Source: Candidatus Kuenenia stuttgartensis (lineage in GTDB: Bacteria > Planctomycetota > Brocadiia > Brocadiales > Brocadiaceae). Taken from it: a DNA stretch of 32,000 bases. This document shows, one piece after another, positions 5,024 through 27,799 of the stretch (position 1 is the first letter of the stretch; every line of letters starts with the position of its first letter). Below the pieces are notes generated by a model. It was not told where the DNA came from. It saw only the letters and a list, made by a program, of their open reading frames with translations, and ran no database searches. A program made the position numbers and the translations under genes. The stretch is from contig NZ_LT934425.1 in assembly GCF_900232105.1 (NCBI RefSeq), forward strand, positions 300,001-332,000, given 5' to 3'.

Positions 5024-8000
5024 TTATATAATCATACCTGTTTCTGCAATACCGGGGTCTTTATTCAATTCCTTTTTAAACTTACGTTCTTTTATCCATG
5101 CATTCAGGCATGGCACCAGAAAAAACACAATCATCGCCATTGTCATGCCCCCAATGGAAGGGATCGCCATTGGTTTTGCAATTTCAGCGCCTGCACCGGT
5201 TGACCATATAATGGGCATCAGGCCAATAAATGTTGTCGCAGAGGTCATTACGGCCGGGCGTATCCTTCTCGTCCCTGCCAAAACAATGGTATCCCTTATC
5301 TCCTGAATACTTTTTATTTTTTTATCCTTAAACAGATCATTTATATATGTAGTGATAAGTACACCATCGTCCTGGACGATGCCAAACAGAGATATAAAAC
5401 CTACCCAAACGGCCACGCTAAAATTATATCCGAATAAATACTGCAGCAGAATGCCGCCTGCAATGGCAGTCGGTACACTGGTTAATAAAATAATCAGCAC
5501 TTGCGAAAATGATCTGAATGCCACGAAGAGGATAATAAAGCCAACAAACTGAGACAACGGGACAAGTATCTGCAATCTCTTTCTTGCCCGTACCTGATTC
5601 TCAAACTGTCCGCTCCATTGAATAAAATAACCCTGCGGCAACATGACTTTCTCAGATACCACCTTAGAGGCTTCTTCGACAAAGCTCATGGGGTCTCTGT
5701 CCCGTACGTTCATAAGGACATACGCCCTTAAAAGGGCGTTTTCACTGCTGATCATGGCAGGTCCCATGACGTAACGGATATCTGCAACCTGTGTAAGGGG
5801 GATAAGTTTGCCTGTGGAGCTTGAAACATAAATCCTTTTCAGTGCATCAAAATTATCGCGGAGTTCCCGGACGTATCTGACCCGTACAGGATAGCGTTCC
5901 CTGCCTTCCACTGTCGTTGTAATATTTTCTCCCCCTATAGCGGTCTCAATAATATCCTGCACATCCTTAATATTTATGCCATAACGTGCAATCTCCTCCC
6001 GCTTTATTATGAATTCAAGATATGGCTTTCCGGTAATCCTCTCCGCATAAAGATCAACCGCCCCCGGAACATCCCTTAAAGCCTTTTCAACATCCAGTGC
6101 CAGTTGCTGCAGCACGTTCAGGTCTGTCCCAAATATCTTAACGCCAATCGAGGTGCGGATACCGGTTGCAAGCATGTCAACGCGGTTTACTATGGGTTGT
6201 GTCCATATGTTTGCCACGCCTGGTATCCTCATGGCTTCATCCATTTCCTGTATAAGCTCCTGTTTCGTAATCCTCCGCTCATCGGGCAGAAACAAGTGAA
6301 AGACCGGGTGCAGGAAGGAAGGCACATATTGCAGAAAACCATACTCTATCTTTTTCTTTCGCCATTCCTCTTCAGGTTTTAAGGTGACAATCGTCTCAAA
6401 CATCTCGGCAGGCGCCGGATCGGTAGGGGTTTCCGCCCTGCCCAGCTTTCCCACGACTATATCCACCTCCGGAAATGACTTGATGATAACATCCTGTTTC
6501 TGCATCACCTTGAACGCATCGGTAAGCGCAACGCTCGGCAGCATAACCGGCATAAAAAGGATGGACCCTTCGTCCAATGGTGGCATAAATTCCCTTCCGA
6601 TCCTTTTCGCAACAAAAACAGATAAAATAATCACAACGATGGGAATCGTAAGAAATAGTCTCTTATGCTCCAATACCCAACGAAGTATCGGCGTATACCC
6701 GCTCAGGAGCAGCCTTGAGGTATAATTTCTCTCCATTGGCCTCAGTTTGCCTTTTAACATAAAAAAGCAAAGTGTCGGCGCCAGAGTAAGTGCGAACACA
6801 ACAGACGCTCCTATTGCAAACGTCTTCGTCCATGCGAGGGGTTTAAAAAGTTTTCCCTCCTGCCCGGTAAGCCCAAACACAGGCATAAACATAAAAATAG
6901 TAGTAAGGCCGGCAAAGAGGATTGGTGCCCCCACTTCTTTGGAAGAGTCAAGTATTATTTGAAACCTGCTCTTTTTGCCTTCATATTCTATAAGATTCCT
7001 GTATATATTTTCGGTGACAATAATTGCCATATCACTCACCTCGCCAATGGCAATAGCAATACCGGTAATGGTCATAATGTTTGAATCAATCCCCATAAAA
7101 TACATGCCCAGGAAGGAAATGATTATAGCTATAGGGAATCCAAGACAGCAGACAATAATACTTCGAATGTGCAATAAAAAGAGGGCTACAACGACAGAGG
7201 TAATAATTATTTCTTCTATAAGCGCCTCTTTCAGGGTGGCAATGACGCGATATATAAGCCCTTCTCTGTCGTAGAAAGGTACTATTTTTACCCCTGGCGG
7301 CAAACCGGGTTCGATTTCCTTTATCTTTTCCTTTATTCGCTTTATAACCTTTAACGGATTTTCCCCCTGGCGCATAATAACAACCCCGCCTGCAACCTCT
7401 GCGCCTTCCTTGTCCAGCGCCCCCCGCCTGAAGTCGCCTCCAATCTGAACCGTTGCTACGTTTTTTACAAAGACAGGCACGCCGTTATTGCTGCCAACGG
7501 TAATATTCTCGATATCGGTAACGTTTTTAATAAACCCAAGGCCGCGTATAATAAATTCCATATTATTGTTTTCCACCACCTTGGCACCCACATCGATATT
7601 GCTTTTTCGAACAGCCTCAAACACATCTCCAACAGTCAGGTTGTGCGCCATTAATTTATTGGGGTCCACATCCACCTGATATTGTTTGACAAAACCGCCC
7701 ACACCAGCAACCTCCGAGACGCCTTCAACGGCATTGAGCTGGTATCTGACAAACCAATCCTGGATAGACCGCAATTGTCCGAGATCATATCCTTTCCCCT
7801 CAACGGTATACCAAAAAATCTGTCCAAGTCCGGTAGCATCCGGACCTAGTCTTGGGAGAACATCTTTTGGAAGCAATGCCTGTACAAAGTTTAATCTTTC
7901 AAGCACCCTGGAACGTGCCCAGTAAAAATCGATATTTTCCTTGAAGATAATATAGACCATGGAGAAACCAAACGCAGACTGTGAGCGTATGACCTTTACA

Positions 8001-8233
8001 CCAGGAACGCCCAGGAGATTAACGGTCAGAGGATAAGTAACCTGATCCTCCACGTCCTGCGGGCTACGGCCAGGCCAGTCGGTGAAGACAATACACTGGT
8101 TTTCCCCGATATCAGGAATAACGTCCATGTTGATATGCCTCACCCCGAAGAGACCGCCGAATATCACCAGCAGGTAAAAGCATATGACGAGGAAACGGTT
8201 GTTAAGACATAGTTCGATAAGTTTATTGATCAT
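5024..8233 (-). CDS. cusA: CusA/CzcA-family heavy-metal efflux RND permease
   Basis: 1069 aa with a 12-TM RND architecture. The N-terminus MINKLIELCLNNRFLVICFYLL...DVIPDIGENQCIVFTDWPGRSPQDVEDQVTYPL is typical of the HME-RND family. The protein looks full length and intact. Confidence 0.93.
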   Translation of the reverse strand: MINKLIELCLNNRFLVICFYLLVIFGGLFGVRHINMDVIPDIGENQCIVFTDWPGRSPQDVEDQVTYPLTVNLLGVPGVKVIRSQSAFGFSMVYIIFKENIDFYWARSRVLERLNFVQALLPKDVLPRLGPDATGLGQIFWYTVEGKGYDLGQLRSIQDWFVRYQLNAVEGVSEVAGVGGFVKQYQVDVDPNKLMAHNLTVGDVFEAVRKSNIDVGAKVVENNNMEFIIRGLGFIKNVTDIENITVGSNNGVPVFVKNVATVQIGGDFRRGALDKEGAEVAGGVVIMRQGENPLKVIKRIKEKIKEIEPGLPPGVKIVPFYDREGLIYRVIATLKEALIEEIIITSVVVALFLLHIRSIIVCCLGFPIAIIISFLGMYFMGIDSNIMTITGIAIAIGEVSDMAIIVTENIYRNLIEYEGKKSRFQIILDSSKEVGAPILFAGLTTIFMFMPVFGLTGQEGKLFKPLAWTKTFAIGASVVFALTLAPTLCFFMLKGKLRPMERNYTSRLLLSGYTPILRWVLEHKRLFLTIPIVVIILSVFVAKRIGREFMPPLDEGSILFMPVMLPSVALTDAFKVMQKQDVIIKSFPEVDIVVGKLGRAETPTDPAPAEMFETIVTLKPEEEWRKKKIEYGFLQYVPSFLHPVFHLFLPDERRITKQELIQEMDEAMRIPGVANIWTQPIVNRVDMLATGIRTSIGVKIFGTDLNVLQQLALDVEKALRDVPGAVDLYAERITGKPYLEFIIKREEIARYGINIKDVQDIIETAIGGENITTTVEGRERYPVRVRYVRELRDNFDALKRIYVSSSTGKLIPLTQVADIRYVMGPAMISSENALLRAYVLMNVRDRDPMSFVEEASKVVSEKVMLPQGYFIQWSGQFENQVRARKRLQILVPLSQFVGFIILFVAFRSFSQVLIILLTSVPTAIAGGILLQYLFGYNFSVAVWVGFISLFGIVQDDGVLITTYINDLFKDKKIKSIQEIRDTIVLAGTRRIRPAVMTSATTFIGLMPIIWSTGAGAEIAKPMAIPSIGGMTMAMIVFFLVPCLNAWIKERKFKKELNKDPGIAETGMII

Positions 8234-10505: not shown

Positions 10506-12485
10506 CTATTTTTCTTCCTTAAACTCCATCGCTCCGCCATACAATGCACTTGCTCCGCCTGTAAGCTGGCTCTGGGAATCGATGAGGAAATTTGCTGATG
10601 TGACAACCCTGTCACCTTCTTCAAGCCCCTCCATCACAGGATAATAATCGCCCGCTTTTGGCCCAAGAATCACTTCCTTCCCAACGTATTGACCGTTGCC
10701 TTTATCAATATAGACAATCTTTCGTACACCCGTATCCAAAACTGCCGTGGCAGGAATGGCAAGCATTTGTGTGATTTTTTCAAGACGCATTCCGCACCTG
10801 GTGCAATTATCAGGTTTATCCGATGTTACTTCAGGATGCATGGGGCAGGTGTAAATGGTACGTTTTCTGTGTTCTGTTTTTTTCACCTTCATTCCCACAC
10901 CTTCCCTAACTTCCCATCTGCCCATTTGCCTTTTACAGTCGGGACATTCACCAGGCTTATCCGAGGTCATGCATGCCATAGGGCACATATAGACATACTT
11001 TTGTATCTTTTCACCAGTGGGCGAAGTTACCGTTATACTCTTCTGAAGCATCATACCACACATAGGACAAGACTTTGGGGAAGTATCAGGGTCCCATTCC
11101 TGCGGACAAATGCACGTCACCGTTTCATCAACAGGCATTTCCTTTTTTTCGAGATGCATACCACATACCGGGCAATCACCCGGTTTGTCAGACACATAAC
11201 AATTCATCGGGCATACATACTCATATTCAGTTTCCCCAATTCCCTCTGTTTTGCCTTCGGCAGTCATTTCAAGCCGCGCCGAGGTTTTTTTTATAAATGG
11301 GACATTATCCTCGGGGCATATACCGGGTCTGCTTGATTTAATTTCAGGATGATTGGGACATACATAATCCAGTCCGCTCACATAGGTTCTGTCTCGTTCC
11401 TCCAGTTCTTCAACAGGTATACGTATGCGGGCATTGACATACATGGCAGGTTTGAGTCTGAGCTGACGGTTAGGAATATCACACCGTATTTTCACAGAAC
11501 GCGTCTTATCGTCAAGAAACGGTTCTATAAACGATACCGTTCCGATAAATGCCTCTCCGGGATATGCAGGAGTTGTGACTTCCACCTCCTGTCCAACCTT
11601 TATCCACGCCATTTCATACTCATAAATGTTGGCCATCATCCAAACCTTGGAAAGATCGGCAAGGGTGTATATCATCTCGCCCGTCATAACATATTGCCCT
11701 TCCAGCATCTTCTTCTCTATGACAATACCGCTTATCGGGGCATAGATGATCGTATGTTGTTTTATTTTTCTGTTTCTTGCAAGTTCTTCAATCTGTCTTT
11801 CACTAATACCCCACCATAACAACCTTTTTTTGGTTGCATCTATGAGAGATATTGTGCCGTCCACCACTTCCTTAAAAGGGCTATTCTCTACTTTTTCAAA
11901 GGTTTCCAGCGCCAACAGATACTCTTTCTGTGTAGATACCAGATCAGGACTATACATCCATACCAATGACTCGCCTTTCACTACCTCTGTACCGGTGAAA
12001 TCAATAAACAGTTTGTCTATCCTGCCAGGAATCCATGCGGAAACAACCGCTTTAAGCCGTTCATCGTATTCAATCAATCCAACCGTATAAACATCTTTAG
12101 TTAACGACCGGAATCCGATAACGTCAGTTTTAACCTGTGCCAGTTTACGGGCGCGTTCACTTAATTCTACGGAGGCTAATGCACCTTCTTCCTCCATACC
12201 TGCACCTTTTTCGTATACAGGAACTAAATCCATGGCGCAAATAGGGCATTTTCCTGGTTTATCCATCCTGACGGAAGGATGCATCCCGCATGTCCAGTAG
12301 ATTATCTTCTTTTCTTTTGTTTCTTCAGCATTTGCGGAAGAAATAAAATTTATCCCATCCTGTAGAGACGCATTGCAATATGTCTCTACATAATTGGATA
12401 TTTGTATACCAGAAAGAACACTAAGTATGACAGTGACTATTATTATAAAATATCTCAAGGAAAGAAATTTTTGTTTAAACAACAT
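10506..12485 (-). CDS. cusB: CusB-like RND periplasmic adaptor (membrane fusion protein) carrying six HMBD-like modules
   Basis: The ORF track starts at TTG 12503. I prefer ATG 12485 (MLFKQKFLSLRYFIIIVTVILSV, a TM anchor). The MFP core is present (barrel-sandwich, hairpin and beta-barrel sequence, then LAIPATAVLDTGVRKIVYIDKGNGQY...VTSANFLIDSQSQL). HMBD modules: IYWTCGMHPSVRMDKPGKCPICAMDL; YVCPNHPEIKSSRPGICPEDN (degenerate); YVCPMNCYVSDKPGDCPVCGMHL; CICPQEWDPDTSPKSCPMCGMML; YMCPMACMTSDKPGECPDCKRQM; YTCPMHPEVTSDKPDNCTRCGMRL. Confidence 0.9.
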   Translation of the reverse strand: MLFKQKFLSLRYFIIIVTVILSVLSGIQISNYVETYCNASLQDGINFISSANAEETKEKKIIYWTCGMHPSVRMDKPGKCPICAMDLVPVYEKGAGMEEEGALASVELSERARKLAQVKTDVIGFRSLTKDVYTVGLIEYDERLKAVVSAWIPGRIDKLFIDFTGTEVVKGESLVWMYSPDLVSTQKEYLLALETFEKVENSPFKEVVDGTISLIDATKKRLLWWGISERQIEELARNRKIKQHTIIYAPISGIVIEKKMLEGQYVMTGEMIYTLADLSKVWMMANIYEYEMAWIKVGQEVEVTTPAYPGEAFIGTVSFIEPFLDDKTRSVKIRCDIPNRQLRLKPAMYVNARIRIPVEELEERDRTYVSGLDYVCPNHPEIKSSRPGICPEDNVPFIKKTSARLEMTAEGKTEGIGETEYEYVCPMNCYVSDKPGDCPVCGMHLEKKEMPVDETVTCICPQEWDPDTSPKSCPMCGMMLQKSITVTSPTGEKIQKYVYMCPMACMTSDKPGECPDCKRQMGRWEVREGVGMKVKKTEHRKRTIYTCPMHPEVTSDKPDNCTRCGMRLEKITQMLAIPATAVLDTGVRKIVYIDKGNGQYVGKEVILGPKAGDYYPVMEGLEEGDRVVTSANFLIDSQSQLTGGASALYGGAMEFKEEK

Positions 12486-12554
12486 AATTATCGCACCTTT
12501 CAAAATATAGCGTAATGAAGTAATGATTTTGCCTTAAACTTTTAGAGTAAAAAC

Positions 12555-13142
12555 CTATTTTTGAAACCGCTCTTGTTTTTTTTCACAAATTGGACAGGCC
12601 AGAAAGTCTATATCGCATGTCTTGCAATGCTGAATAAGCCATTCCTGCGACTTCATCCTGCAATCCCGGCATTTCATTTTCCAGGTTGCCAATGCCTTTC
12701 CCTTCACATATCTTGAGAGTACCTTTTTGCACTTGGGGCACTTGCCTATCATTGTTTCGGCTTTTAAACCAGCGGATGCCTTTTGACACGCTGTGCATAC
12801 AAGAACGTCTTTTCCACACTTGTCACAATGATGGACTTCGAGTGCTGATACTTCACTTTTGCAGTCAGGGCAAACCATACTTTTTGCGGCAAGTGCCTTT
12901 TCTTTCTCCGGACTTACATACACTTTCTCACAAAAAGGGCACATGGGTGGCTCTGTGGTTGAATGCTCAGCCAGCGGGTCGTTTTCACTGTGTTTGTGCG
13001 CTACCTCGCCAGCATACATCAGATTACCTCCCCACAGAAGTAGATACATAATTACCGGCGCAACTGTTTTTATAAATTTCTTACAAACCATGGTATCACC
13101 ACTTTTCATTAAAAGATTACTAATTCTTTTCCCTTTTACCAT
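12555..13142 (-). CDS. Secreted cysteine-rich protein with two tandem 4xCxxC (double zinc-ribbon-like) units
   Basis: 195 aa. ATG 13142 is preceded by GGAGGT at 8-nt spacing and overlaps the ATPase 3' end by 23 nt. The hydrophobic leader is VAPVIMYLLLWGGNLMYA. Unit A is MCPFCEKVYVSPEKEKALAAKSMVCPDCKSEVSALEVHHCDKCGKDVLVCTACQK. Unit B is KCPKCKKVLSRYVKGKALATWKMKCRDCRMKSQEWLIQHCKTCDIDFLACPICEK. Confidence 0.8.
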   Translation of the reverse strand: MVKGKRISNLLMKSGDTMVCKKFIKTVAPVIMYLLLWGGNLMYAGEVAHKHSENDPLAEHSTTEPPMCPFCEKVYVSPEKEKALAAKSMVCPDCKSEVSALEVHHCDKCGKDVLVCTACQKASAGLKAETMIGKCPKCKKVLSRYVKGKALATWKMKCRDCRMKSQEWLIQHCKTCDIDFLACPICEKKQERFQK

Positions 13143-15876
13143 ATTTAACTACCTCCATGATAATGAAGGTAAGAGAAGAAAAACCAAAGACGGTAATCCA
13201 ATCAATTAACTCCAGCGGTCTTACTCTGAAAATATCTTCGAAGAAAGGGGTATAGACGATAGCCACCTGTATGGCCAACGAAATCCCCGCTGCCAGCAGG
13301 AGTTTATTATTGGTAAAAACACCAATTTCAAATAAGGAACGTCTTGCATTCCTGCAGTTAAAAGAGTGAAATAATTGTGAGACGACCATCACACAGAAGG
13401 CAATTGTTCTGGCCAGCTCGATATCCCCACGCAACAGGTGAGGAGCCGCTTCATTACAAAACCAGTGGTAAAGATAGTCAGGTATTGCACGGGTTCCATA
13501 GTACAGGACATACGTATATGCCAGAAGGGTACTCATGGCAATGAGAAAACCCTGAAATAGAATCAGGATACCTAGACGCTTGTCTATGATTTGTTCTGTT
13601 GACCTTCTTGCCAGTCTTTTCATAATGTCAGGATCTACCGTATCGACACCCAAGGCCAATGCCGGCAGACCATCGGTGGCAATATTTATCCATAATATCT
13701 GGATAGGGAATAGGGGGATAGGAAGATTGAATATCGATGCGAGGAGCATTGTCAAAATCTCACCGGTATTACACGAGAGCAGATAGTGGATGGACTTCTT
13801 AATGTTGTCATAAATACCTCGTCCCTCTTCAATGGCTGCCTCTATGGAAGCAAAATTGTCATCCGTTATAACCATATCGGACGCCTCTTTTGTGACATCG
13901 GTTCCTGTAATACCCATGGCTACGCCGATGTTTGCTTCTTTTACAGCAGGGGCGTCATTTACGCCGTCACCGGTCATGGCCACAACGTCTCCCTGTTTCT
14001 TCCATGCCTTTACAATCCTGAGTTTGTGTTCAGCAGTTACACGTGCATATACGGCTATCTTTGACACTTCTTTTGCTAAATCGTCATCGGAAAGCGCATC
14101 TAACTCTATTCCATCAATAGCCTTTGAGGAATTGCTGCTAAGAAATCCCAGCTCTTCCCCAATAGCCCGGGCTGTATTCTTGTGATCACCCGTAATCATG
14201 ACCGTCTTTATACCGGCTGTATGACAAACGGCAACGGCTTCTTTGACCTCTGGTCTGGGTGGGTCAATCATGGCTAATAGTCCCACAAAGATCATCTCTC
14301 TTTCTACTGTGTCAGGGACAGGGTTGGTGATTTCCCGGTCAAGAGGCTTGTATGCCACACCGAGGACGCGCAGGGCAGACCCTGCCAAATTATTGTTTTC
14401 CTCCAAAATGACCTGTATATCGTTTTCTGTCAAATCCCTTGTCGTTCCATCATGATAAATCTTTGTACAATCCTGTAAGATTACATCAGGCGCACCTTTT
14501 TCACATACCTGTAAAGCAGGGGAGGTACCTCTTATTGTAGACATCTTCTTTCGTTCTGAATCAAAAGGAATTTCTGAAATGAGGGGGAATTGTTTATCCA
14601 ACATTTCCTTCCAGATACCTGTCTTTCCTGCTGCACTTAAGATGGCGCCCTCTGTAGGGTCGCCAATAACCTTCCATGTAGCGTCTTCTTTTTTAAGGTG
14701 GGTATTGTTACATAACACACCTATTTCCAGTGTCTTTTCGAGTGCTTTCTGGTCAATTCCCAGAAGAGATTCTCCGTTGACAAGAAAATTTCCATCCGGC
14801 ATGTAACCCGTCCCCGATACGTCAATGGTTTTACCATTGGCAAATATCTTTCTTACGGTCATCTCGTTTTGTGTTAAAGTGCCTGTTTTGTCTGAGCAAA
14901 TAACTGTAGCACATCCCAAAGTTTCTACTGATGGAAGCTTTCGGATCAGTACGTGCCGTTTCACCATGCGTTGCACCCCTAAGGCTAAGGCAATAGTCAC
15001 GATTGCTGGAAGACCTTCCGGAATGGCAGCCACGGCAAGGCTCACAGATATGAGGAATGCCTCTAATAATGGATCCTTTCTACACAACTCCAAAAGGAAT
15101 ACGATTGTTACGATCCCCAAACACAAATAAACCAATTTTTTCCCAAACACCTCGAGCTTTCGCTGAAGGGGGGTCTCTTCCTTCCCTGCCTCCTGAATGA
15201 GACCGGCAATCTTGCCCAACTCTGTGTGCATTCCCGTTGTTACAATAACGCACGTCCCTTTACCACTCGTTACCGAGGTCCCCATAAATACCATATTTTT
15301 CTGATCGGCAATGGGTAAAGAAGGATTGGGGAGTGGTTCAGTGGACTTACCAACCGGCGTTGACTCTCCTGTAAGAGAAGCCTCTTGGGTCATAAAACTA
15401 AAGGAAGAGCATAGTCTGCCATCAGCAGGGACGTAATCACCTGCCTCCAACAATACAATATCTCCCGGCACAATATCCCGGGAGGGGATGGATTGTATTT
15501 CGCCGTTCCGTGTTACCCTTGAAAAGGGTGCAGACATTTTTTGTAAGGCCTCAAGTGATTTCTCCGCGCGGTATTCCTGTATGAACCCAATAATCGCATT
15601 AATAATAACGATAGCAATAATGGCTAACGCATCGATCCATTCCCTCAAAACTCCGGAGACTATGGCGGCAGCAATCAATACCCAGACAATAAAGTTATTA
15701 AACTGCCCCAAAAAGAGGATGAAGGGAGATACACCTTTTTTTTCTTCCAGTTGATTGTATCCGTATTTCTTTAGCCTGTTTTCCGTTTCGTTAAGGCTAA
15801 GTCCGGCGTCAACCGAAGTATCAAGGTTCTTTATTACCTCATTGGCATGCATTGTATGCCACTGTAATTCAGTCAT
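13120..15876 (-). CDS. P-type cation-transporting ATPase, P2 (SERCA/PMCA-like, Ca2+/cation) subtype
   Basis: 918 aa. Motifs present: CSDKTGTLT phosphorylation site, TGDGVNDAPA, TM4 IPEGLPA, and TM6 WINIATDGLPALALG. There is no N-terminal CxxC metal-binding domain and no CPC motif, so it is not a P1B copper pump. Confidence 0.9.
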   Translation of the reverse strand: MTELQWHTMHANEVIKNLDTSVDAGLSLNETENRLKKYGYNQLEEKKGVSPFILFLGQFNNFIVWVLIAAAIVSGVLREWIDALAIIAIVIINAIIGFIQEYRAEKSLEALQKMSAPFSRVTRNGEIQSIPSRDIVPGDIVLLEAGDYVPADGRLCSSFSFMTQEASLTGESTPVGKSTEPLPNPSLPIADQKNMVFMGTSVTSGKGTCVIVTTGMHTELGKIAGLIQEAGKEETPLQRKLEVFGKKLVYLCLGIVTIVFLLELCRKDPLLEAFLISVSLAVAAIPEGLPAIVTIALALGVQRMVKRHVLIRKLPSVETLGCATVICSDKTGTLTQNEMTVRKIFANGKTIDVSGTGYMPDGNFLVNGESLLGIDQKALEKTLEIGVLCNNTHLKKEDATWKVIGDPTEGAILSAAGKTGIWKEMLDKQFPLISEIPFDSERKKMSTIRGTSPALQVCEKGAPDVILQDCTKIYHDGTTRDLTENDIQVILEENNNLAGSALRVLGVAYKPLDREITNPVPDTVEREMIFVGLLAMIDPPRPEVKEAVAVCHTAGIKTVMITGDHKNTARAIGEELGFLSSNSSKAIDGIELDALSDDDLAKEVSKIAVYARVTAEHKLRIVKAWKKQGDVVAMTGDGVNDAPAVKEANIGVAMGITGTDVTKEASDMVITDDNFASIEAAIEEGRGIYDNIKKSIHYLLSCNTGEILTMLLASIFNLPIPLFPIQILWINIATDGLPALALGVDTVDPDIMKRLARRSTEQIIDKRLGILILFQGFLIAMSTLLAYTYVLYYGTRAIPDYLYHWFCNEAAPHLLRGDIELARTIAFCVMVVSQLFHSFNCRNARRSLFEIGVFTNNKLLLAAGISLAIQVAIVYTPFFEDIFRVRPLELIDWITVFGFSSLTFIIMEVVKYGKREKN

Positions 15877-15900
15877 TTCGTTTTAGCCTCTCGCATTATC

Positions 15901-16812
15901 TCATGTCTTATACTGCATTTTTAATCTTTTCCTGTAATTCACACAGGGATGGCTTTCACTTGTTTCGCACAGATGCTTGTCTTCCTCGTTGTCTTTATAT
16001 AATCTTTGTATGCACACTTCGAGAGGCGACTCTGACACACTATATTTGTCAGACGGCAACAATATACACGATGCTGTATAACCTTCCGGATTAATATGGA
16101 TGAATTCACTTCCCGCCTTCCTGCTACAGTCCAAGAGACGGCCATCATTTGGAAGATGCAGTAAGTAGGTATTCGTTCTTTCTTTCAGATTTAAAAACCA
16201 TTGCCTAAATAAAGTCCGTTGTTGTGTTGATAGGGATAGCCCGTAATCATGCGATCTGCCAGTCGGTATATATTCTATAAATAATCCTAACTTGGCGCCA
16301 AAAGGGTACTTTTCCAAAAATGCCTCTTCTACTTGAATTAATTCAACATTCTCTGCTGTAACCGTGATAGAAAAACCATAGAGTATTTTATTGTTTTTCA
16401 GATTTGCAAAGGCATTCATAACATTATGATAGACACCAGCGCCCCGTCGTTTATCAGTCTCTCTTAAATCTCCTTCCAAACTAATTACCGGAATTATATG
16501 CGGTAATCCGGACAACTTTTTTGCAACAGCTTCAGAAATCATAGTCCCATTCGTTATCAGGATAAAAAAACTATTCTTATGGCCGCTTAAAATCTCCATG
16601 AGATTTGGATATAGCATAGGCTCGCCACCCGTAAGCATAAAAATGAAACTACCCAATGATTCAGCTTGTAAAAGAATATTTTCTAACATTTCTCCCGGCA
16701 AAATTTTTTTTTCCTTATAGATCCTGGCATAACAATGATCACAGGCAAGATTGCAATCAGAGAGAAGACTTATAAAAATAGTATGAGGGATGGGATTGCC
16801 ATTATTATCCAT
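15901..16812 (-). CDS. Radical SAM protein with a twitch/SPASM-like C-terminal Cys motif
   Basis: 303 aa. CNLACDHC is the CxxxCxxC motif, GGEP is present, and the C-terminal CSRKAGSEFIHINPEGYTASC fits C-x14-G-x4-C and is followed by 3 more Cys. The start is uncertain: there is no SD, and the frame stays open upstream. Confidence 0.85.
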   Translation of the reverse strand: MDNNGNPIPHTIFISLLSDCNLACDHCYARIYKEKKILPGEMLENILLQAESLGSFIFMLTGGEPMLYPNLMEILSGHKNSFFILITNGTMISEAVAKKLSGLPHIIPVISLEGDLRETDKRRGAGVYHNVMNAFANLKNNKILYGFSITVTAENVELIQVEEAFLEKYPFGAKLGLFIEYIPTGRSHDYGLSLSTQQRTLFRQWFLNLKERTNTYLLHLPNDGRLLDCSRKAGSEFIHINPEGYTASCILLPSDKYSVSESPLEVCIQRLYKDNEEDKHLCETSESHPCVNYRKRLKMQYKT

Positions 16813-16987
16813 CAGTTTATATTTCTTCTTTATCTTTTTATAAAAATTCCATAATACCCCCAGGTATCCGGGAAAAGTAAATACCCATGGTAAAAAGGCC
16901 TTCCTGAAAATGCGAAGAATATATTCATTACTATTGTTACTGGAAGATAGGGGGCATTATATTATTTATTTTTATAAATATTTAAAT

Positions 16988-17347
16988 TTACTTGTTTTCT
17001 AATAATTCTTTTATCTTATTTTTCAATTCTTGAAGATCAGAGGATTTTCTTATGTACGCATCGGCTGACCAGGACAAAAAACTTACCTTATAACAACTAA
17101 ACGCCGTGTTAATAATGATTGGTATTTTCCTGTGTTTGCTTAAAATTTTCCCCATAGCTTCGAGTCCATCCATTTTTGGCATAATAATGTCCATGACTAT
17201 TATGTCCGGCAAATAATCATTTACCACTTTTATGCCTTCTACGCCGTTCCTTGCGGTGATAACATTATACCCCTCGCTTTCCAATTCCTGTTTATACAGT
17301 AATAGTTGGTTTTTATCATCTTTTACTACAAGAATGGTTTTCATCAT
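16988..17347 (-). CDS. Stand-alone CheY-like response regulator receiver domain
   Basis: 119 aa. MMKTILVVKDDKNQ...PDIIVMDIIMPKMDGLE...PIIINTA...K gives the acidic pocket, the phospho-acceptor Asp and the conserved Thr/Lys pattern. There is no output domain. Confidence 0.88.
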   Translation of the reverse strand: MMKTILVVKDDKNQLLLYKQELESEGYNVITARNGVEGIKVVNDYLPDIIVMDIIMPKMDGLEAMGKILSKHRKIPIIINTAFSCYKVSFLSWSADAYIRKSSDLQELKNKIKELLENK

Positions 17348-17414: not shown

Positions 17415-17528
17415 TTATAAGGCTATCGGCATCCGATGTACAAATGTGGATGCCCTTGATACCATGGGGAAAAACACAACGATTGCACCTAAAATGCTTA
17501 ACATTGATAGATGTTTTTTTGTTAACAT
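17415..17528 (-). pseudogene. Orphan copy of the RBS plus signal-peptide region of the octahaem cytochrome gene (37 codons, then a stop)
   Basis: Hand translation MLTKKHLSMLSILGAIVVFFPMVSRASTFVHRMPIAL(stop), against the cytochrome N-terminus MLIRKHLSMLSVLIAIVVSFPMVSGASAFVYQMTPMAL. The DNA aligns over ~115 bp with 24655-24769 at roughly 80% identity by eye. Confidence 0.7.
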
Positions 17529-18214
17529 AAAACATCTCCTTTGGGAAATTTATAAACGACACAATTGTTTTACACATTGTAAAACTATCACAAGTTTTAT
17601 GCAGTGTCAAATATAATTTTATAATTGGAAAATAGTTTTAAATAAATTTTAATACACGAGGCAGGTTATTGTCTGTATGGTATTAACTTCCCGAATATAG
17701 CGTCATTAATATCTATGCAACAAGGTCTTCCTGGCAGAAGACATATACACAAACACAAATTTACTGATTTGAAATAAGCACAAATTAATTGTTGCAAAAT
17801 ATTTGATAAATGCATCAATTAATTTGATCTTCACATGTATAAGGAATTTCAATTCTTTCGTTATGTTTTAAAACACTCTACAGGAAATCCCTTTTAAGTA
17901 TGATATATGTTATCGTTTAGATGAAGGTTAATACAAAGGCCAATCCAGTGAATTTTTAATAGCCATGCAAAACGTTGTTTTAAGAAACAAGGCTATTGTT
18001 TTTATTGTATCGAACCTAAAGTAAATACTGCTTTTTAAAACATATTTTAGCAGCTTTTTTGTTCAGAGATTTTTCTATTTCTTTCAATTCCTTATCTCTC
18101 TAAAGAATAAAATTGTTTAAATCTGTTATTGAATTTCCTATGCTACACAAGACAACAGAGGCTGGAATAATAAGCAACTTCATGATACCTATTATTATTC
18201 TTTATTTTTTAAAT

Positions 18215-20600: not shown

Positions 20601-20703
20601 AGCTTATATTCTCAGAAACTAACCATGTTATTCCACTGGCCGAACAAAGGGCGCCAATGCTCCTCTGGGCTTATACCTGGTTCTTACAGTATGTAAATAC
20701 TTT

Positions 20704-22449: not shown

Positions 22450-22677
22450 TTACTGTTCGTGCTTATGGCCGTAATGATGGTTATGCCCATCGTTATGGTG
22501 GTTTACTTCCATTTTTGCCAAATCCATCCCACACACAGGACATTTTCCAGGCTCATCGCTTTTACTGCCTTCATGTTTCATGTGGCAAAGATAACTATCC
22601 TCTATGCCATGTTCTGCCTCCATATATTCATAATTTTCATGGGCAGTTTCTGCACTGTGATGATGATCATGACTCAT
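22450..22677 (-). CDS. His-rich 75-aa protein with a central HMBD motif and no signal peptide
   Basis: MSHDHHHSAETAHENYEYMEAEHGIEDSYLCHMKHEGSKSDEPGKCPVCGMDLAKMEVNHHNDGHNHHYGHKHEQ. There are 16 His in 75 residues. GGGGAAG is a plausible SD about 5 nt upstream. Confidence 0.7.
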   Translation of the reverse strand: MSHDHHHSAETAHENYEYMEAEHGIEDSYLCHMKHEGSKSDEPGKCPVCGMDLAKMEVNHHNDGHNHHYGHKHEQ

Positions 22678-22800
22678 GTGCTTCCCCTGTTCCCGGAGTG
22701 ATTGTACATAGGCATAAACTATTATTATATAGTACAGTGTGTATGGTAATATGAGACATTACCTAGTATAGCGTTTCATTAAAATATCTACATTGATACC

Positions 22801-22915: not shown

Positions 22916-24769
22916 CTAGTCTTTTTCCTCCCACTCATACCAACGTTCCACTCCATAATCTGTATCAGTTGAATGACAACCGGCACAGGAATTTGTAATC
23001 ACGGTACCAGAACTGTTTTGAATACCGTTAGCCGTATTATTATCAGCCATCGCTTTGCTGGCGTATGGTTTGATAATATCAAAGACATGAGAAGATATGT
23101 CATTATTTACTGCGCTCTTTGCAGTTTTTGGCATATGACAACCTGTACAAAGGCTTCCACCAGGGCTGGAAGAACTGAATTCATGTTTTGCATGTCTGTT
23201 TTGTACTTCACCATCTTTCTCAATGGTCTCCGCAAAATCATCATGGCATGTAATGCAGATCTTATTATTGTCACTTCTCTTGCGTAATTGAGGTGTGCCT
23301 GCCTCGCCCGTAACGTGAGGTTCATGACACTGATAACATTTCTGTCCTGCATAGTTGTAATGATGACTCTTAATGAAATCCTGATATTGTTGACGATGTT
23401 TCTTGGAATGGTTATTCTCTGAGGCATTCTCACCTAAAGAACCGGCGTCATTATCATTCCAATAACCAGCCGTTGGATTGCCGTCGGCGTCTGTTTCCTC
23501 TATATAGTCCGCCAGTACCTTACCTGGTATAAATGGTGTAATCTCATCGCCATTGATAATAGAGGGATATTCTGTCTCAAAGTCGGCGCTATTTTCACCG
23601 TCCTTGTTTTTTACACGAACGTGACATTGCCCGCAAACTTCATTGCCACGATCTGAGGCCAGGTATTTCGGGTTAACGATATGCCTGGCTTTTCCACCTC
23701 CTTCAGATACGTGTAATTCGCCAGGCCCGTGACAGCTTTCACACGATATGCCCAGTTCCTTTGAATTAGAAACAAATTCTCCGTTGACATTTTGTGTAAT
23801 ATCCAATCCCGTTACGTGACAGCCCTCGCAATTCTGTTCAAAAGATTTTTCTTTATTCGGAGGAGTATCTTCGTCTGTTGTTATTAACGTGCCGTCATTG
23901 TTATACCATGTGCTTGCTTCGTAAGAAACCCAGGCTGCATCGGGATTACTTTGGTCTGCATTTCTATTATTATATTGTATGGGCAATATATAATGACTAT
24001 CTCCTGTTTTTACGTGATACCTCTGTTTTCCTGCAAAGGAAACGCCTCCATGAGTTCTGACTACGGTATATGTGACGGAAATAGCCTCATTGGTCAAATC
24101 ATAGAGGGTGACTTTATAGTCGCCTCCACTGATAAATGCCCTGAAGGCAACTTTGCCATCATCCGTGGTCATAAAATTTCCACTGAATGGAGCAACAACT
24201 GTATCAGATGCCGGCGTCTGGATGGTTTTTGCGTGAGCCGTTTCCTGCCAATCCTTATTGTCAGGATGGCAGCCCAGGCATACCGTACTCCCTACATATT
24301 CAGAGTCCGGGTGGGACGAGGAAGAAAGTTTTATTTTAACACTCTTTTTCTTCCCTGATTTTACCTTTACACTAAATTTATCATTGGGTAAATAAAACTC
24401 ATCAGATAAAGGTGTAGCTCTGACAATGTATTTACCGGGCGCAAGGTTTTTAATCTTAAACTTTCCCTTTTTGTTTGTGGTAGCCATGTCCTCAAAGGCT
24501 GACCCGTAAGCCGTTTCCTCTGTAAGTGTCTGGATGCTGATCGTTATATCTGTTAAAGGTTGCCCGTCGGTACTGGTTACCTTGCCAACTATTTTTCCTG
24601 TTTCTTTAGACGTGCTTTTTTGTAGAAAAATGCTATTTGAGCCGTTTGCCGAAGACAAAGCCATCGGCGTCATCTGATATACAAAAGCGGATGCCCCTGA
24701 TACCATTGGGAAAGACACAACAATGGCAATTAAAACACTTAGCATTGATAGATGTTTTCTTATTAACAT
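22916..24769 (-). CDS. Octahaem c-type cytochrome with an N-terminal CarboxypepD_reg-like beta-sandwich domain, secreted
   Basis: 617 aa with a signal peptide. Eight CxxCH motifs: CLGCH, CEGCH, CESCH, CGQCH, CYQCH, CITCH, CTGCH, CAGCH. The N-terminal GKIVGKVTSTDGQPLTDITISIQ...KGKFKIKNLAPGKYIVRATP pattern fits the beta-sandwich domain. Confidence 0.9.
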   Translation of the reverse strand: MLIRKHLSMLSVLIAIVVSFPMVSGASAFVYQMTPMALSSANGSNSIFLQKSTSKETGKIVGKVTSTDGQPLTDITISIQTLTEETAYGSAFEDMATTNKKGKFKIKNLAPGKYIVRATPLSDEFYLPNDKFSVKVKSGKKKSVKIKLSSSSHPDSEYVGSTVCLGCHPDNKDWQETAHAKTIQTPASDTVVAPFSGNFMTTDDGKVAFRAFISGGDYKVTLYDLTNEAISVTYTVVRTHGGVSFAGKQRYHVKTGDSHYILPIQYNNRNADQSNPDAAWVSYEASTWYNNDGTLITTDEDTPPNKEKSFEQNCEGCHVTGLDITQNVNGEFVSNSKELGISCESCHGPGELHVSEGGGKARHIVNPKYLASDRGNEVCGQCHVRVKNKDGENSADFETEYPSIINGDEITPFIPGKVLADYIEETDADGNPTAGYWNDNDAGSLGENASENNHSKKHRQQYQDFIKSHHYNYAGQKCYQCHEPHVTGEAGTPQLRKRSDNNKICITCHDDFAETIEKDGEVQNRHAKHEFSSSSPGGSLCTGCHMPKTAKSAVNNDISSHVFDIIKPYASKAMADNNTANGIQNSSGTVITNSCAGCHSTDTDYGVERWYEWEEKD

Positions 24770-24836
24770 AAAAACCCTCCTCCATTGCTTTTACATAACG
24801 CAGAAGCAATCTTTAAATAATATATTCTGGAATAAT

Positions 24837-26162
24837 TCACTGCGATAGTTGTATCCCCACTGCCCTTTCAAGATTTGCCAGATTTGTTTCATAATCAACT
24901 ACCGATTTATAATACTGAAGCTGTGAATCTAAAAGCACTCGCTGACTGTCAATCAGGCTGAGAAAATCGATGATATCCGCTTCATAGCCGATTTGCGCCG
25001 CTTTAAGCGCTTGTTCCGCCTGGGGAATAACGCCAGTTTTGAAAAGATTTACCGTGCTTTTCGATGATTGTAATCTGACGAAATAATCTTTTACTTCGAA
25101 AAGCGTCTTATTATTAATATACCGGTGCTCTGATCTGGAGGCAGAAAGAGCCTCATTTGCTTCCTCCACCCTGGCGCGGTTCTTCGGCCATAACCATGGT
25201 ATATTAATCGTAATAGAAGACGCCCACGCATCCGGGTTTCCGTCATTCTGCATATATTCAACCATAGGTTCAAAGTCCATAAAGTAATAGTCTTTTCTTG
25301 AAAGTTTTAGCTGTGCCTCATCCCTTTTGATTGCGTGGTCATATTTCTTTAGTTCAGGCCTGTTGTTTGAAGCAAGGTTTTCCAACCCTTCTAACGTTAC
25401 ATCCAAATTATGTATCTCAATAAGAGGGGGATCGCCCAATGGATGCTGCGGATGCCTGTCAAGTAAAACATTCATCATGGCAACAACCGACTCTTTTTCC
25501 TTGTTCAAAACAATAAGTTCATTCGTAAGTGTTGACAACTCTACCTGTGCAGAAAGCACATCCCTTTGCGATGTTTTGCCAACGGCGTATTTTGTTTCCG
25601 CGATTTTTGAAAATTTACGAAGCAGCTCCCTGTTCTCTTCCGTAATTGCAATAGCGCGGTTTACGTAAAACAGATCATAAAAGGCGGTTTTTACCAGGGC
25701 GGTAATTTCCTGCACCTTTGCCAACAGATCTTCTTCCGCCATTTTAGATTCCTGAGTTGCTATCTTCCCTCTCATGGCAAGTTTACCGGGAAATGGAATT
25801 TTCTGAGTCACGGCGTACCGCTGTTGCAGCATGCTGGTTTGGCCGTTAATGTTGAGAGGTTGGTTGGACATATTAAAAGAACCTGCCCGAAACATGGGGT
25901 CTTCGAGTGATTTCGCCTGAGAAATTCTCGACGCGGAAGCATTTAACCGCTGACGCACAGCAATAATCTCAGGATTATGTTCCATCGCCTCATTAATTAG
26001 CCACTGTATGTTTAACGTACCGGCAGGCTTTTCTTTAGGTTTGTCAGCGCCCACTTCTTCTTTTGTCTTTGATGGGGAAGTATCACAACTCCCGGTTCGT
26101 GAAATCAGGACAAATTGGGTGAAAAAAAGTAAAATGAGTATGAACATCTTTTCGTATTTCAT
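24837..26162 (-). CDS. TolC/OEP-family outer membrane protein (lipoprotein-type leader)
   Basis: The ORF track gives 24837..26210. I prefer the internal ATG at 26162 (MKYEKMFILILLFFTQFVLISRTGSC), though the start remains uncertain. The two-repeat OEP sequence organisation is similar to that of 2312..3772. Confidence 0.82.
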   Translation of the reverse strand: MKYEKMFILILLFFTQFVLISRTGSCDTSPSKTKEEVGADKPKEKPAGTLNIQWLINEAMEHNPEIIAVRQRLNASASRISQAKSLEDPMFRAGSFNMSNQPLNINGQTSMLQQRYAVTQKIPFPGKLAMRGKIATQESKMAEEDLLAKVQEITALVKTAFYDLFYVNRAIAITEENRELLRKFSKIAETKYAVGKTSQRDVLSAQVELSTLTNELIVLNKEKESVVAMMNVLLDRHPQHPLGDPPLIEIHNLDVTLEGLENLASNNRPELKKYDHAIKRDEAQLKLSRKDYYFMDFEPMVEYMQNDGNPDAWASSITINIPWLWPKNRARVEEANEALSASRSEHRYINNKTLFEVKDYFVRLQSSKSTVNLFKTGVIPQAEQALKAAQIGYEADIIDFLSLIDSQRVLLDSQLQYYKSVVDYETNLANLERAVGIQLSQ

Positions 26163-26235
26163 ATTTAACATTTCGGATTTTACCATTAAATATTTTGACA
26201 AAAAATGCAAAGAAATCTCTGATAAGGTACTGAAA

Positions 26236-27234
26236 TCACTCTTTACACGTAACCATATGACAATTACCTTCTTTGCACCCGGCTTCGCTGGTTAACAGAT
26301 GTGTATGAAAATAGACGGACGAAAAAAGTATCCCTGAGAAAAAAACCGATACGACGCTTAGATAGCAAGGCATCGCAAATAATCCGCCTTTGCTGAATGA
26401 TGATACTTTTGGTTCTACCAAACGGCTTATACGCTCTTCAAATGCCTGCTGTTCATTCGAAAATGAGGCTATCGCTATTTGCGTCATATGCTTTGTATTG
26501 TATCCGGACATTTTGACAAGGGCGCTTGCCAATGCAAGTGGTTCATTCATAAGCCGCAAAGCAGCATCGTCCGCAGCCTTCTCAGAGTGCATTTTATACA
26601 ACCGCACAAGATAATTATTAACCGGCAGAAAGAAATGAAGCGCACAGAATATCTGCATTATCGCAAATCGTAACGGGTCCCTGTGTTTCAGATGATGAAA
26701 TTCGTGAAGAACCACCGACTGTAGCTCTTTTGGGGTCAGATAAGAAAAAAGGCCGGCAGACAAACATATTTTGGGGCGAAATATGCCAAAGGTAAAGGCA
26801 TTGAATATTTTCTGCCCGGATACAAATATCGGGGAGTTTTTACATGGCAGTGTATTTAATGTATCATCCCCAATCGGATACTCTTTTATGTCCGTCAAAC
26901 CAAGAGAACGAAACAGACTGCGGTTTATAGTAAAGAGTAAAAACGCCTTATAAAAAGCCCTGCCGACGCCAACGAAATAAATACCCATACAAAGAAAATA
27001 AAACAACAGACACAGCGTATAAAAGCTGAAAAGGCAATTCAGACAAATACTTCCACAACAAGTTGCAGAGTGGTACGTGTTAAAAATCCCTTTTATATAG
27101 CTGTTAACACTCACCAGAATGCCGGCAACAAAAGCAGAGGCAATGATGCTGTTTATCAACAAAAAAAGAGCAAAACACTTATCAGCATTCTTTTGCTGAT
27201 TATTAGAAACGTTCTCTCCCCCTTTATTTTCCAT
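26236..27234 (-). CDS. M56-family (BlaR1/MecR1-like) membrane zinc peptidase lacking a penicillin-binding sensor domain
   Basis: 332 aa with multiple TM segments and the HEFHHLKHRDP (HExxH) motif. The Cys cluster HSATCCGSICLNC lies near TM2. The C-terminal tail is FHTHLLTSEAGCKEGNCHMVTCKE. The start overlaps the blaI-like gene by 11 nt. Confidence 0.85.
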   Translation of the reverse strand: MENKGGENVSNNQQKNADKCFALFLLINSIIASAFVAGILVSVNSYIKGIFNTYHSATCCGSICLNCLFSFYTLCLLFYFLCMGIYFVGVGRAFYKAFLLFTINRSLFRSLGLTDIKEYPIGDDTLNTLPCKNSPIFVSGQKIFNAFTFGIFRPKICLSAGLFSYLTPKELQSVVLHEFHHLKHRDPLRFAIMQIFCALHFFLPVNNYLVRLYKMHSEKAADDAALRLMNEPLALASALVKMSGYNTKHMTQIAIASFSNEQQAFEERISRLVEPKVSSFSKGGLFAMPCYLSVVSVFFSGILFSSVYFHTHLLTSEAGCKEGNCHMVTCKE

Positions 27235-27682
27235 TGATTTGCTCTTTCTTAAGCGATTGTTTCTTGGATTCTATGAGTTGCGAAAAATATTCCATCTTGT
27301 CCGGATTTAACTGCGACATGCATTCAACAAAATGAACCATTGCGGCTTTTAGCGACAGACCTGAAATCCCCTCAACAACAGCCTTCGACACCATCTCATA
27401 AAACTGTTCCTTACTATACAAAGGTTTATACAGGAAGGCCTTCTTTTCCCTTCTTCTGGTCAAAAGCCCCTTTTTCGTCATCCGGTTGGTGACAGTAATC
27501 ACGGTCGAATAAGAAACACTCCTCTCCTGAGGAAACGATTCCAGGATATCCTTCACGCTGCCCTCACCCTTCATCCACAATGCATTCATAATATCTTCTT
27601 CCAGTTTCCCCAGTACCTGATTCAGCCCTTTCCTGAAAGGATTAAAATTAAATTTCAACAGCTTCCCCTCCACATTTTGCAT
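27224..27682 (-). CDS. BlaI/MecI/CopY-family winged-helix transcriptional repressor
   Basis: 152 aa. LGKLEEDIMNALWMKGEGSVKDILESFPQERSVSYSTVITVTNRMTKKGLLTRRREKKAFLYKPLYSKEQ matches the penicillinase-repressor fold pattern. There is no CopY-type C-terminal CxCx4CxC. The true start may be a downstream TTG following GGAGGGG. Confidence 0.85.
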   Translation of the reverse strand: MQNVEGKLLKFNFNPFRKGLNQVLGKLEEDIMNALWMKGEGSVKDILESFPQERSVSYSTVITVTNRMTKKGLLTRRREKKAFLYKPLYSKEQFYEMVSKAVVEGISGLSLKAAMVHFVECMSQLNPDKMEYFSQLIESKKQSLKKEQINGK

Positions 27683-27769
27683 TAATTTTGCATTAATTAG
27701 TGTTATAGAATCTTAAGTGTATTGACACAATAATAAGCCCTTTTGGGCAAATCATTGTCAATTGAAATT

Positions 27770-27799
27770 ATTATATTCTACACCATGTAAAAGATGCAA
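27770..27799 (-). promoter_or_regulatory. Candidate sigma70-type promoter with an embedded TACA-N3-TGTA palindrome (BlaI/CopY-box-like operator)
   Basis: The minus strand reads TTGCAT (27799-27794), an 18-nt spacer cttttacatggtgtagaa, then TATAAT (27775-27770). The spacer contains the palindrome at 27779-27789. It lies ~90 nt upstream of the blaI-like ATG. Confidence 0.45.

Follow-up and report, generated by a model that had tools for sequence, protein, structure and literature searches.

What does a BlaR1-type membrane protease detect when its penicillin-binding sensor domain is missing? A 2023 review reports BlaR homologs in Planctomycetota and other phyla, with a role that 'remains to be elucidated', and a 2026 preprint on the PvmSR pair asks what such sensor-less BlaR-type proteases detect (bioRxiv 10.64898/2026.08.03.742534). 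The same question is raised by a BlaI-type repressor gene and the adjoining gene for a short M56 peptidase in Candidatus Kuenenia stuttgartensis. Both lie within a stretch of 32,000 nucleotides (contig NZ_LT934425.1, positions 300,001 to 332,000), here called the window and numbered from its first letter. A metal-responsive BlaI/M56 switch is already known from PetR/PetP of Synechocystis sp. PCC 6803, in which the degradation of PetR requires PetP and copper together (Garcia-Canas et al. 2021; bioRxiv 10.1101/2020.07.31.226407). From comparison of the window with related loci we favour, by a modest measure, the view that the Kuenenia pair is a two-gene proteolytic switch controlling a copper/silver efflux system; judged from its genes, this variant with a Cys tail and Cus-type cargo appears new.

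Repressor and protease genes

27224..27658, minus strand: BlaI/MecI/CopY-family repressor (Pfam PF03965 Penicillinase_R, E 8e-26, profile positions 1-114 of 115)
26236..27234, minus strand: M56 membrane zinc metalloprotease, 332 aa (Pfam PF05569 Peptidase_M56, E 1.8e-17; also PF01435)
26692..26706, minus strand: catalytic HEFHH, residues 177-181 (H177, E178, H181), invariant in alignments A2 and A3 and aligned with the BlaR1 active site

The overlapping BlaI/BlaR1-type layout claimed in a preliminary description of this DNA is borne out by the PF03965 and PF05569 matches, the repressor open reading frame (ORF) in its longest form (27224..27682, minus strand) sharing 11 nt with the protease ORF (26236..27234, minus strand). 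The true start of the repressor is probably the TTG at 27658 and not the longest-ORF ATG at 27682, which would give a protein of 144 aa; with five related loci aligned, the TTG start yields a conserved N-terminus, MKFNFNPF, with a GGAGGGG ribosome-binding site upstream. The best match of the repressor in the PDB is Mycobacterium tuberculosis Rv1846c (entry 2G9W), and entries 1SD6, 1OKR and 1SD4 are matched as well.

The repressor has a single Cys. It had been described as lacking the CopY CxCx4CxC site, and neither this motif nor a CxC is present in it or in any of 45 orthologs, so that metal sensing in the manner of CopY is impossible for the repressor. By its sequence it keeps the traits expected of a protease substrate. 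In a sequence alignment only, its VH|FVEC coincides with the MecI cleavage site N101|F102 (VLN|FVEK), and an x-F-[VI]-[DE] motif is kept in most of the 45 other aligned repressors, the outliers including loci L048, L050 and L052.

The protease ends with its catalytic and transmembrane (TM) module, as the preliminary description had stated: Pfam finds no domain past this module in the 332 aa, and a penicillin-binding domain is absent. The NCBIfam BlaR1/MecR1 models cover the protease part alone, the best (blaR1_generic) reaching at most 46 bits against cut-offs of 400-1200. H177, E178, H181 and E218 are invariant among the M56 homologs of both alignments, and E218, within SEKAADDAA, is the probable third zinc ligand. 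In a profile comparison the protein matches Staphylococcus aureus BlaR1 (8EXP) with E 7e-9. An AlphaFold2 model built on an alignment of 67 sequences has a mean predicted local distance difference test score (pLDDT) of 86.7 and a pTM of 0.86, compared with a pLDDT of 68 for the first model, which used 11 sequences, and in Foldseek it comes closest to S. aureus BlaR1 as solved by cryo-EM (8EXP-8EXT).

Hydropathy predicts three TM helices, at about residues 21-45, 62-92 and 286-309. The profile alignment extends from the protease domain to BlaR1 TM4, after which the extracellular sensor domain of BlaR1 comes next; the Kuenenia protein ends 23 residues past its last helix. Because the protease must reach the repressor it should face the cytoplasm, and we infer that the gluzincin domain is cytoplasmic and that the TM1-TM2 loop and the 23-residue tail are therefore periplasmic. 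The preliminary description had left open on which side of the membrane the Cys segments lie; BlaR1 homology predicts a place outside the cytoplasm for both. Its label 'sensor-less' is misleading, as the place of the BlaR1 sensor domain is taken here by the tail.

Cysteines in the loop and tail

27034..27060, minus strand: loop/TM2-entry cysteines CCGSICLNC, residues 59-67, equivalent to L2 of BlaR1 and to the loop between TM2 and TM3 of PetP
26239..26307, minus strand: C-terminal tail HTHLLTSEAGCKEGNCHMVTCKE, residues 310-332, with C320-x4-C325-x4-C330, at the position of the BlaR1 extracellular sensor domain

The two segments that had drawn attention in the protease are HSATCCGSICLNC (residues 55-67) and its C-terminal end FHTHLLTSEAGCKEGNCHMVTCKE (residues 309-332). 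Homologs were collected by a word-indexed homology search, which gave 40, and by a profile search of 1.84 billion representative proteins, which gave 230 clusters below E 1e-30. Among 67 full-length members, aligned with a mean column identity of 29%, C320 is invariant and C60, C67, C325 and C330 are each at least 90% conserved. Residues 46-61, which form the loop (YIKGIFNTYHSATCCG), and residues 62-67 next to it (SICLNC) contain no Met and have conserved Cys instead.

A survey of short M56 proteins had been proposed, and one of the residues after the last TM helix in 187 proteins did find similar Cys tails, in recognisable classes. The main clade carries C-x4-C-x2-H-(5-10 residues)-C-x2-H-C, often with a His-rich end such as HGHIHDHSHQHPH, while the tail of the Brocadiales clade, to which the window belongs, is the shorter C-x4-C-x4-C. 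Tail and loop cysteines occur together. Loop Cys are present in each of the 114 proteins that have three or more tail Cys (both in 87, one in 27), and both loop Cys are found in none of the 26 proteins without tail Cys, in counts that are uncorrected for shared ancestry. This suggests that the loop and tail segments form one functional unit.

What that unit does can be read in more than one way. If the cysteines form an envelope thiol-redox sensor, a disulfide switch would report periplasmic oxidative or disulfide stress, and copper would act indirectly, through wrong disulfides, or would be no trigger at all. The co-occurrence of loop and tail Cys suits loop-tail disulfides equally well as a metal site. 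Against such a switch, long His runs end many of the tails, as is typical of metal binding, the clade of this window has an odd number of conserved Cys (five), and Kuenenia is a strict anaerobe. The cysteines might also be structural only, as disulfides or a structural metal site, with the signal arriving through a partner (the small ORF that other clades have between the M56 and OEP genes, or an HMBD protein), through the repressor, or through the protease from its cytoplasmic side. A structural role would fit the shortness and poor modelling of the tail, and also the fact that PetP functions without such cysteines; but the tail occupies the exact position of the BlaR1 sensor domain, and the repressors carry no metal motif. 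Direct ligation of the metal by the cysteines is, on the sequences at hand, an evenly balanced proposition.

Heme attachment by the tail CKEGNCH (CX4CH) was also considered and was rejected, because the His is lost in close relatives (CKTRACN, CVTRACT), the third Cys is kept, and the main clade has C-x4-C-x2-H. Tails of actinobacterial type (HCEHDG...HLFCRWGV...DCPH) make up a further class.

Genes downstream of the pair

24837..26210, minus strand: CusC/TolC-like outer-membrane efflux protein (Pfam OEP, E 6e-48), 25 nt downstream of the M56 gene
10506..12503, minus strand: CusB-like periplasmic adaptor (Pfam HlyD_D23 and four HMBD repeats; best NCBIfam match CusB)
5024..8233, minus strand: CusA-type heavy-metal resistance-nodulation-division (RND) pump (TIGR00914, 1035 bits)

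The gene for the outer-membrane efflux protein (OEP) is probably co-transcribed with the M56 gene, and it lies downstream of M56 in every Brocadiales locus with enough sequence. The pump of the window matches Escherichia coli CusA with E 4e-256 (856 bits), compared with 7e-164 (551 bits) for the zinc pump ZneA. Its M561, M611, E613 and M687 align with M573, M623, E625 and M672 of E. coli CusA, so that the three-methionine Cu(I)/Ag(I) site and the glutamate are retained. A CusA-like pump with this Met site marks the region as a copper/silver resistance island.

Other genomes were represented by contigs with M56 homologs at 87%, 61%, 36%, 29% and 25% identity, together with 46 loci from one-genome-per-species collections that were located with alignment A2. 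The closest public genomes are Kuenenia metagenome-assembled genomes (MAGs), at 94% and 67% protein identity. A locus was taken as informative if it was distinct and had at least 1.5 kb of downstream sequence, and a tail as Cys-rich if three or more Cys stood among the last 40 residues. OEP, CusB and/or CusA genes follow directly in 22 of the 32 informative loci with Cys-rich tails and in none of the nine with fewer than three tail Cys, the loci being phylogenetically non-independent. The pair is syntenic with CusC/CusB/CusA-type genes in Planctomycetota, Thermodesulfobacteriota/Deltaproteobacteria and Nitrospirae. Three other pumps, two from Deltaproteobacteria and one from a planctomycete MAG, are likewise of CusA type, scoring 1268 or 850 bits against CusA and 587 or 543 against ZneA.

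Zinc or cobalt as the signal is disfavoured because all four pumps tested, taken from four lineages, score far more highly with CusA than with ZneA. The preliminary description had named both copper and zinc as candidates; the pumps uphold Cu(I)/Ag(I) and speak against zinc. In our estimate the BlaI/M56 pair very probably regulates the Cus-type genes, and copper or silver is the likely signal.

A classical response to beta-lactams or cell-wall damage would accord with the membership of both proteins in the BlaI/BlaR1 families. It is nevertheless exceedingly improbable because of domain content and cargo: the M56 protein has no penicillin-binding domain, the genes of the window include no beta-lactamase or penicillin-binding protein (PBP) gene near the pair, and the cargo in dozens of loci is a metal exporter.

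Eight of the ten exceptions to Cus synteny belong to bacteria of candidate phyla radiation (CPR) type, which have no outer membrane. The two CPR pairs that were checked, in L041 (6363-9901) and L044 (3026-11933), precede genes for DsbA-like, CcdA/DsbD-like and DUF3105 proteins, and the pair of L044 is also flanked by genes for an HMBD-bearing (copper-type) P-type ATPase and two multicopper oxidases. The tails in these cases are C-x5-C-x4-C. Nitrospirae pairs with one tail Cys (L019, 1027-6646) precede PCYCGC, TPR, thioredoxin-like, ResB and CcsA genes. Tail class tracks cargo class, since Cus, Dsb-like and cytochrome c maturation genes follow different tails, and this is to be expected if the tail is the sensor.

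The CPR-type and Nitrospirae cargo, with its DsbA-like, DsbD/CcdA-like, thioredoxin-like, ResB and CcsA genes, is what a thiol-redox sensor would lead one to expect; the cargo of the Cus-linked clade, by contrast, is a dedicated Cu(I)/Ag(I) exporter and not redox enzymes, and for that clade we consider a redox switch unlikely. Small unannotated proteins encoded between the M56 and OEP genes of several loci would provide the partner that purely structural cysteines call for, but a structural staple, unlike a sensor, would not be expected to track the cargo. We hold that explanation to be quite unlikely.

Three loci of Thermodesulfobacteriota/Deltaproteobacteria (L016, L017 and L030) have an M56 gene with a CxxHC-type tail and a response-regulator gene downstream. 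The full Cys-rich tail is present in L016 and L030, and L017 has two Cys only in the last 40 residues. No recognisable BlaI gene is found upstream of M56 in any of the three, which may be another wiring of the same sensor. A search of a plasmid collection gave distant Firmicutes M56 matches only, with no members of the clade.

Promoter and operators

27770..27799, minus strand: promoter of the blaI-M56-OEP operon by direct reading, with -35 TTGCAT (27799..27794), an 18-nt spacer and -10 TATAAT (27775..27770)
27776..27792, minus strand: operator 1, TTTTACAtggTGTAGAA, an N3 dyad inside the promoter spacer (21.3 bits with a position weight matrix trained only on other genomes)
17568..17584, minus strand: operator 2, TTTTACAatgTGTAAAA (20.3 bits, the second-best match in the 32 kb)
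24789..24805, minus strand: degenerate operator-like site TTCTGCGttaTGTAAAA between the OEP and multiheme cytochrome genes (12.8 bits)
22724..22743, minus strand: core-perfect TACAcacTGTA-cta-TATAAT before a 75-aa HMBD ORF, of uncertain operator status

Direct reading confirms the promoter of the preliminary description, a TTGCAT-18 nt-TATAAT pair around a TACA-N3-TGTA palindrome; the palindrome, TACAtggTGTA, is at 27789..27779 within the spacer. The published BlaI/CopY box is TACA-N2-TGTA (PMC7253601). The spacing, which had been noted as one more than this canonical N2, proves to be a kept property, N3 being found in more than 25 orthologous promoters. TTGCAT agrees with TTGACA at three of six positions only, because of which the blaI promoter is missing from a generic promoter scan; distant orthologs have TTGACA or TTGACT at the -35 position.

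Sites homologous to operator 1 precede blaI in over 25 loci, which represent several phyla. In five loci of the Kuenenia lineage the -35/operator/-10 block is invariant within diverged flanks, with only the central bases of the dyad varying. Orthologs down to 25% protein identity show TTGAC[AT]-ttc-TACA-N3-TGT[AC]-gaa-TAtaaT, and the operator is kept in lineages as far apart as Kuenenia, Nitrospirae and CPR, in each case within the promoter spacer. Across phyla the dyad is TTCTACA-N3-TGTAGAA, and in L005 it is a perfect 8+8 palindrome. Within the window TACA-N3-TGTA occurs five times against 0.5 expected, and TACA/TGTA at spacings N0, N1 and N2 does not occur.

The position weight matrix (PWM) was built from blaI-promoter sites of other genomes, and shuffled windows give 0.74 matches of at least 9 bits each. 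Operator 2 overlaps the final bases of a TTGACA-17 nt-TAGTTT promoter and stands upstream of the gene chain for a response regulator, a radical-SAM protein, a P-type ATPase, a double-zinc-ribbon protein, cusB ... cusA. Outside the window, too, most loci have a second copy before the efflux genes: in 13 of them a strong second operator separates M56 from the OEP/CusBA genes, and none of these sites was part of the PWM training. In the Kuenenia relatives L004/L010, L008 and L009 the second operator is at the place matching the degenerate site, just past the OEP gene. These second operators are the strongest evidence for direct control of the efflux genes by the repressor. The link to metals that had been proposed from the surrounding genes is therefore well founded, with Cus-type synteny across phyla and the N3 operator repeated before efflux genes.

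Only two sites in the window match TACANNNTGTANNNTATAAT perfectly; the one at 22724..22743 is among them and has the same arrangement of its -10. It scores below 9 bits with the PWM, to which its flanks are a poor fit, and it is located at a rearrangement breakpoint; it could be a new promoter born there, or chance. Two further TACA-N3-TGTA occurrences, at 529 in the loop of a repetitive extragenic palindrome (REP)-like element and at 20685 upstream of glgX, score below 9 bits with the PWM and are probably chance.

Main-clade loci carry small unannotated ORFs just past the second operator, with M56 on one side and the OEP gene on the other (L007, 10954-11361; L006, 10939-12150), and these could encode periplasmic metal-binding partners. 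The 5' untranslated region (UTR) of the repressor mRNA (27720-27762) contains a possible 43-nt hairpin (-17.6 kcal/mol, z -3.5), which is kept only in the three closest loci, and an Rfam search of this UTR gave no match.

Relation to known regulators

PetR/PetP is the closest precedent. In both systems a BlaI/CopY-family factor that lacks the Cys motif of CopY is paired with a short M56/M48 protease, encoded by an overlapping gene and devoid of a penicillin-binding domain, and in both the repressor site is N3-spaced and lies between -35 and -10; for PetR it is GACA-N3-TGTC (bioRxiv 10.1101/2020.07.31.226407), compared with TACA half-sites here. The host phylum differs as well. In PetP an extracytoplasmic loop of about 14 residues before the last N-terminal TM helix is the proposed copper sensor, and the same paper notes that in BlaR/MecR the equivalent loop is in contact with the sensor domain. 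PetP has four TM helices and loop methionines (M53/M58) as candidate ligands, whereas the Kuenenia protein has three helices, five conserved Cys and a Cys tail. PetR governs the plastocyanin/cytochrome c6 (petE/petJ) regulon and also activates; the cargo here is OEP-CusB-CusA efflux.

With BlaI/BlaR1 and MecI/MecR1 of Staphylococcus and Bacillus the pair has in common the gene order, the winged-helix repressor, the aligned cleavage-site motif, a gluzincin membrane protease (BlaR1 being the best structural match) and TACA/TGTA half-sites. It differs in having 23 residues in place of the extracellular acyl-enzyme sensor domain of about 250 aa and one N-terminal TM helix fewer than BlaR1, in operator spacing (N3 and not N2), and in a metal pump as cargo instead of beta-lactamase or PBP2a. 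CopY/CopR of Enterococcus, Lactococcus and Streptococcus share the repressor family, the TACA/TGTA box and a copper-export regulon (PMC7253601), but CopY senses Cu(I) itself via its C-terminal CxCx4CxC and needs no protease.

Short M56 proteins without a penicillin-binding domain are also found in Rv1846c/Rv1845c, in a Mycobacterium abscessus pair and in PvmSR of Pseudomonas aeruginosa (bioRxiv 10.64898/2026.08.03.742534), whose signals, unlike the one proposed here, are either not known or unrelated to metals. In the literature on these pairs we found no conserved Cys tail and no link to Cus genes. A literature search that reached few of the subscription journals likewise returned no BlaI/M56 regulator of cus or czc genes and no conserved Cys tail.

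CusRS of E. coli, a sensor of periplasmic Cu(I)/Ag(I), turns on cusCFBA, and in this it would be a functional analogue only, since it consists of a histidine kinase and a response regulator and not of a protease and a repressor. The window contains no histidine kinase genes.

Proposed mechanism

Without a signal, a dimer of the BlaI-family repressor would sit on TTYTACA-N3-TGTARAA between the -35 and -10 of the blaI-M56-OEP operon, and the second operator copy (17568-17584 in the window) would hold down the remaining efflux genes. The three-TM M56 protein would present its protease domain to the cytoplasm and the C60/C67 loop and C320/C325/C330 tail to the periplasm, in replacement of the BlaR1 penicillin-binding sensor. 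Periplasmic Cu(I) or Ag(I) would be bound by the loop and tail thiolates, or would oxidise them, and the change at the cysteines would be relayed via TM2 and TM3 to the protease domain. The protease would then cut the dimerisation helix of the repressor at H|F-V-E, the equivalent of MecI N101|F102, which in the 144-aa form falls between H109 and F110. With the repressor off the DNA, the CusCBA-type pump and accessory metal-binding proteins would be made.

Several observations weigh against this scheme. In the window itself, the -35 box of the blaI promoter is weak, the operator just past the OEP gene is degenerate (12.8 bits), and apparently inserted genes separate the switch from cusB and cusA, which are 12-20 kb away. 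The tail of the protease is modelled with low confidence (pLDDT 50-68 in the 67-sequence model), and C64 and C67 may be within the membrane. The loop has no Met, whereas PetP is proposed to use methionines. Structural disulfides are common among periplasmic cysteines, and the even Cys number of the main clade (2 + 4) fits them. The preliminary description had expected the Cys and His residues alike to be conserved among orthologs, which holds for the five Cys in the 67 homologs; the histidines of the Brocadiales-clade loop and tail vary when checked for conservation, and because of this 'Cys-rich' suits the clade better than 'Cys/His-rich'. Finally, nearly all members come from MAGs, and the genome matches are MAGs or enrichment organisms.

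A broader form of the proposal is that such proteins constitute an undescribed, widespread class of sensors for Cu(I)/Ag(I) in the periplasm. In these, a Cys(/His) tail of 20-40 residues and two loop Cys would replace the penicillin-binding domain and drive proteolysis of a BlaI-type repressor, supplanting CusRS over CusCBA in Brocadiales, Thermodesulfobacteriota, Nitrospirae and other uncultured lineages. The tails would then be, in general, swappable mini-sensors that predict the cargo (Cus, Dsb/Scs-like or cytochrome c maturation). We would give this generalisation about an even chance.

The cluster of cysteines, whose presence and type track the regulated genes, would give a concrete answer, open to testing, to what 'sensor-less' BlaR-type proteases detect. 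If the proteolytic switch is real, it would be a third type of copper-efflux control beside the one-component (CueR, CsoR, CopY) and two-component (CusRS, CopRS) systems, and it would extend the PetRP principle from cyanobacterial cofactor choice to metal resistance in at least four phyla. In anammox bacteria, which are metal-dependent and are used in wastewater treatment, it is a likely control point of copper tolerance. The compact set of operator, repressor and protease is also a possible copper biosensor module.

Other features of the window

22450..22677, minus strand: 75-aa His-rich HMBD ORF (Pfam HMBD, E 9e-9)

After the OEP gene, the next genes on the minus strand encode a multiheme cytochrome, the 75-aa His-rich HMBD protein, an HD-GYP/Cache protein and GlgX. 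They are followed by the receiver-only response regulator, the radical-SAM protein, the type-II P-type ATPase and the double-zinc-ribbon protein, then by the CusB-like adaptor, an unannotated 518-aa ORF and the CusA/CzcA-family RND pump, and lastly by another HMBD protein, a second OEP and a multicopper oxidase. The 518-aa ORF (8815-10371), between cusB and cusA, has no Pfam or NCBIfam matches. The PMR1/SERCA-like type-II P-type ATPase, radical-SAM and receiver-only response-regulator genes (13120-17347) are syntenic with cusB in all loci of the Kuenenia lineage; the ATPase is not of the heavy-metal P1B type and is an odd partner in a copper island.

The block from 17.6 to 24.8 kb, with the cytochrome, HMBD ORF, HD-GYP/Cache and GlgX genes, looks from its sequence like an insertion or rearrangement that is specific to the lineage and falls within the copper island. 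It is marked by a stretch of about 130 nt that is directly duplicated (24640-24790 and 17415-17545) and carries the ribosome-binding site of the gene for the 617-aa multiheme cytochrome together with the codons for its signal peptide; the copy beside operator 2, the second one, is a 37-codon remnant. The HMBD ORF corresponds, at 86% identity, to the C-terminal third of a cytochrome c-HMBD fusion protein of 252 aa in the relative L001, and the homology begins at 22719, directly below TACAcacTGTA-cta-TATAAT.

The REP-like element, with inverted ends ACCGCAGAG ... CTCTGCGGT, is found at 439-600 of the window and at 8616-8673 of L001. It lies 3' of the multicopper oxidase gene in the window and after the OEP gene in L001.

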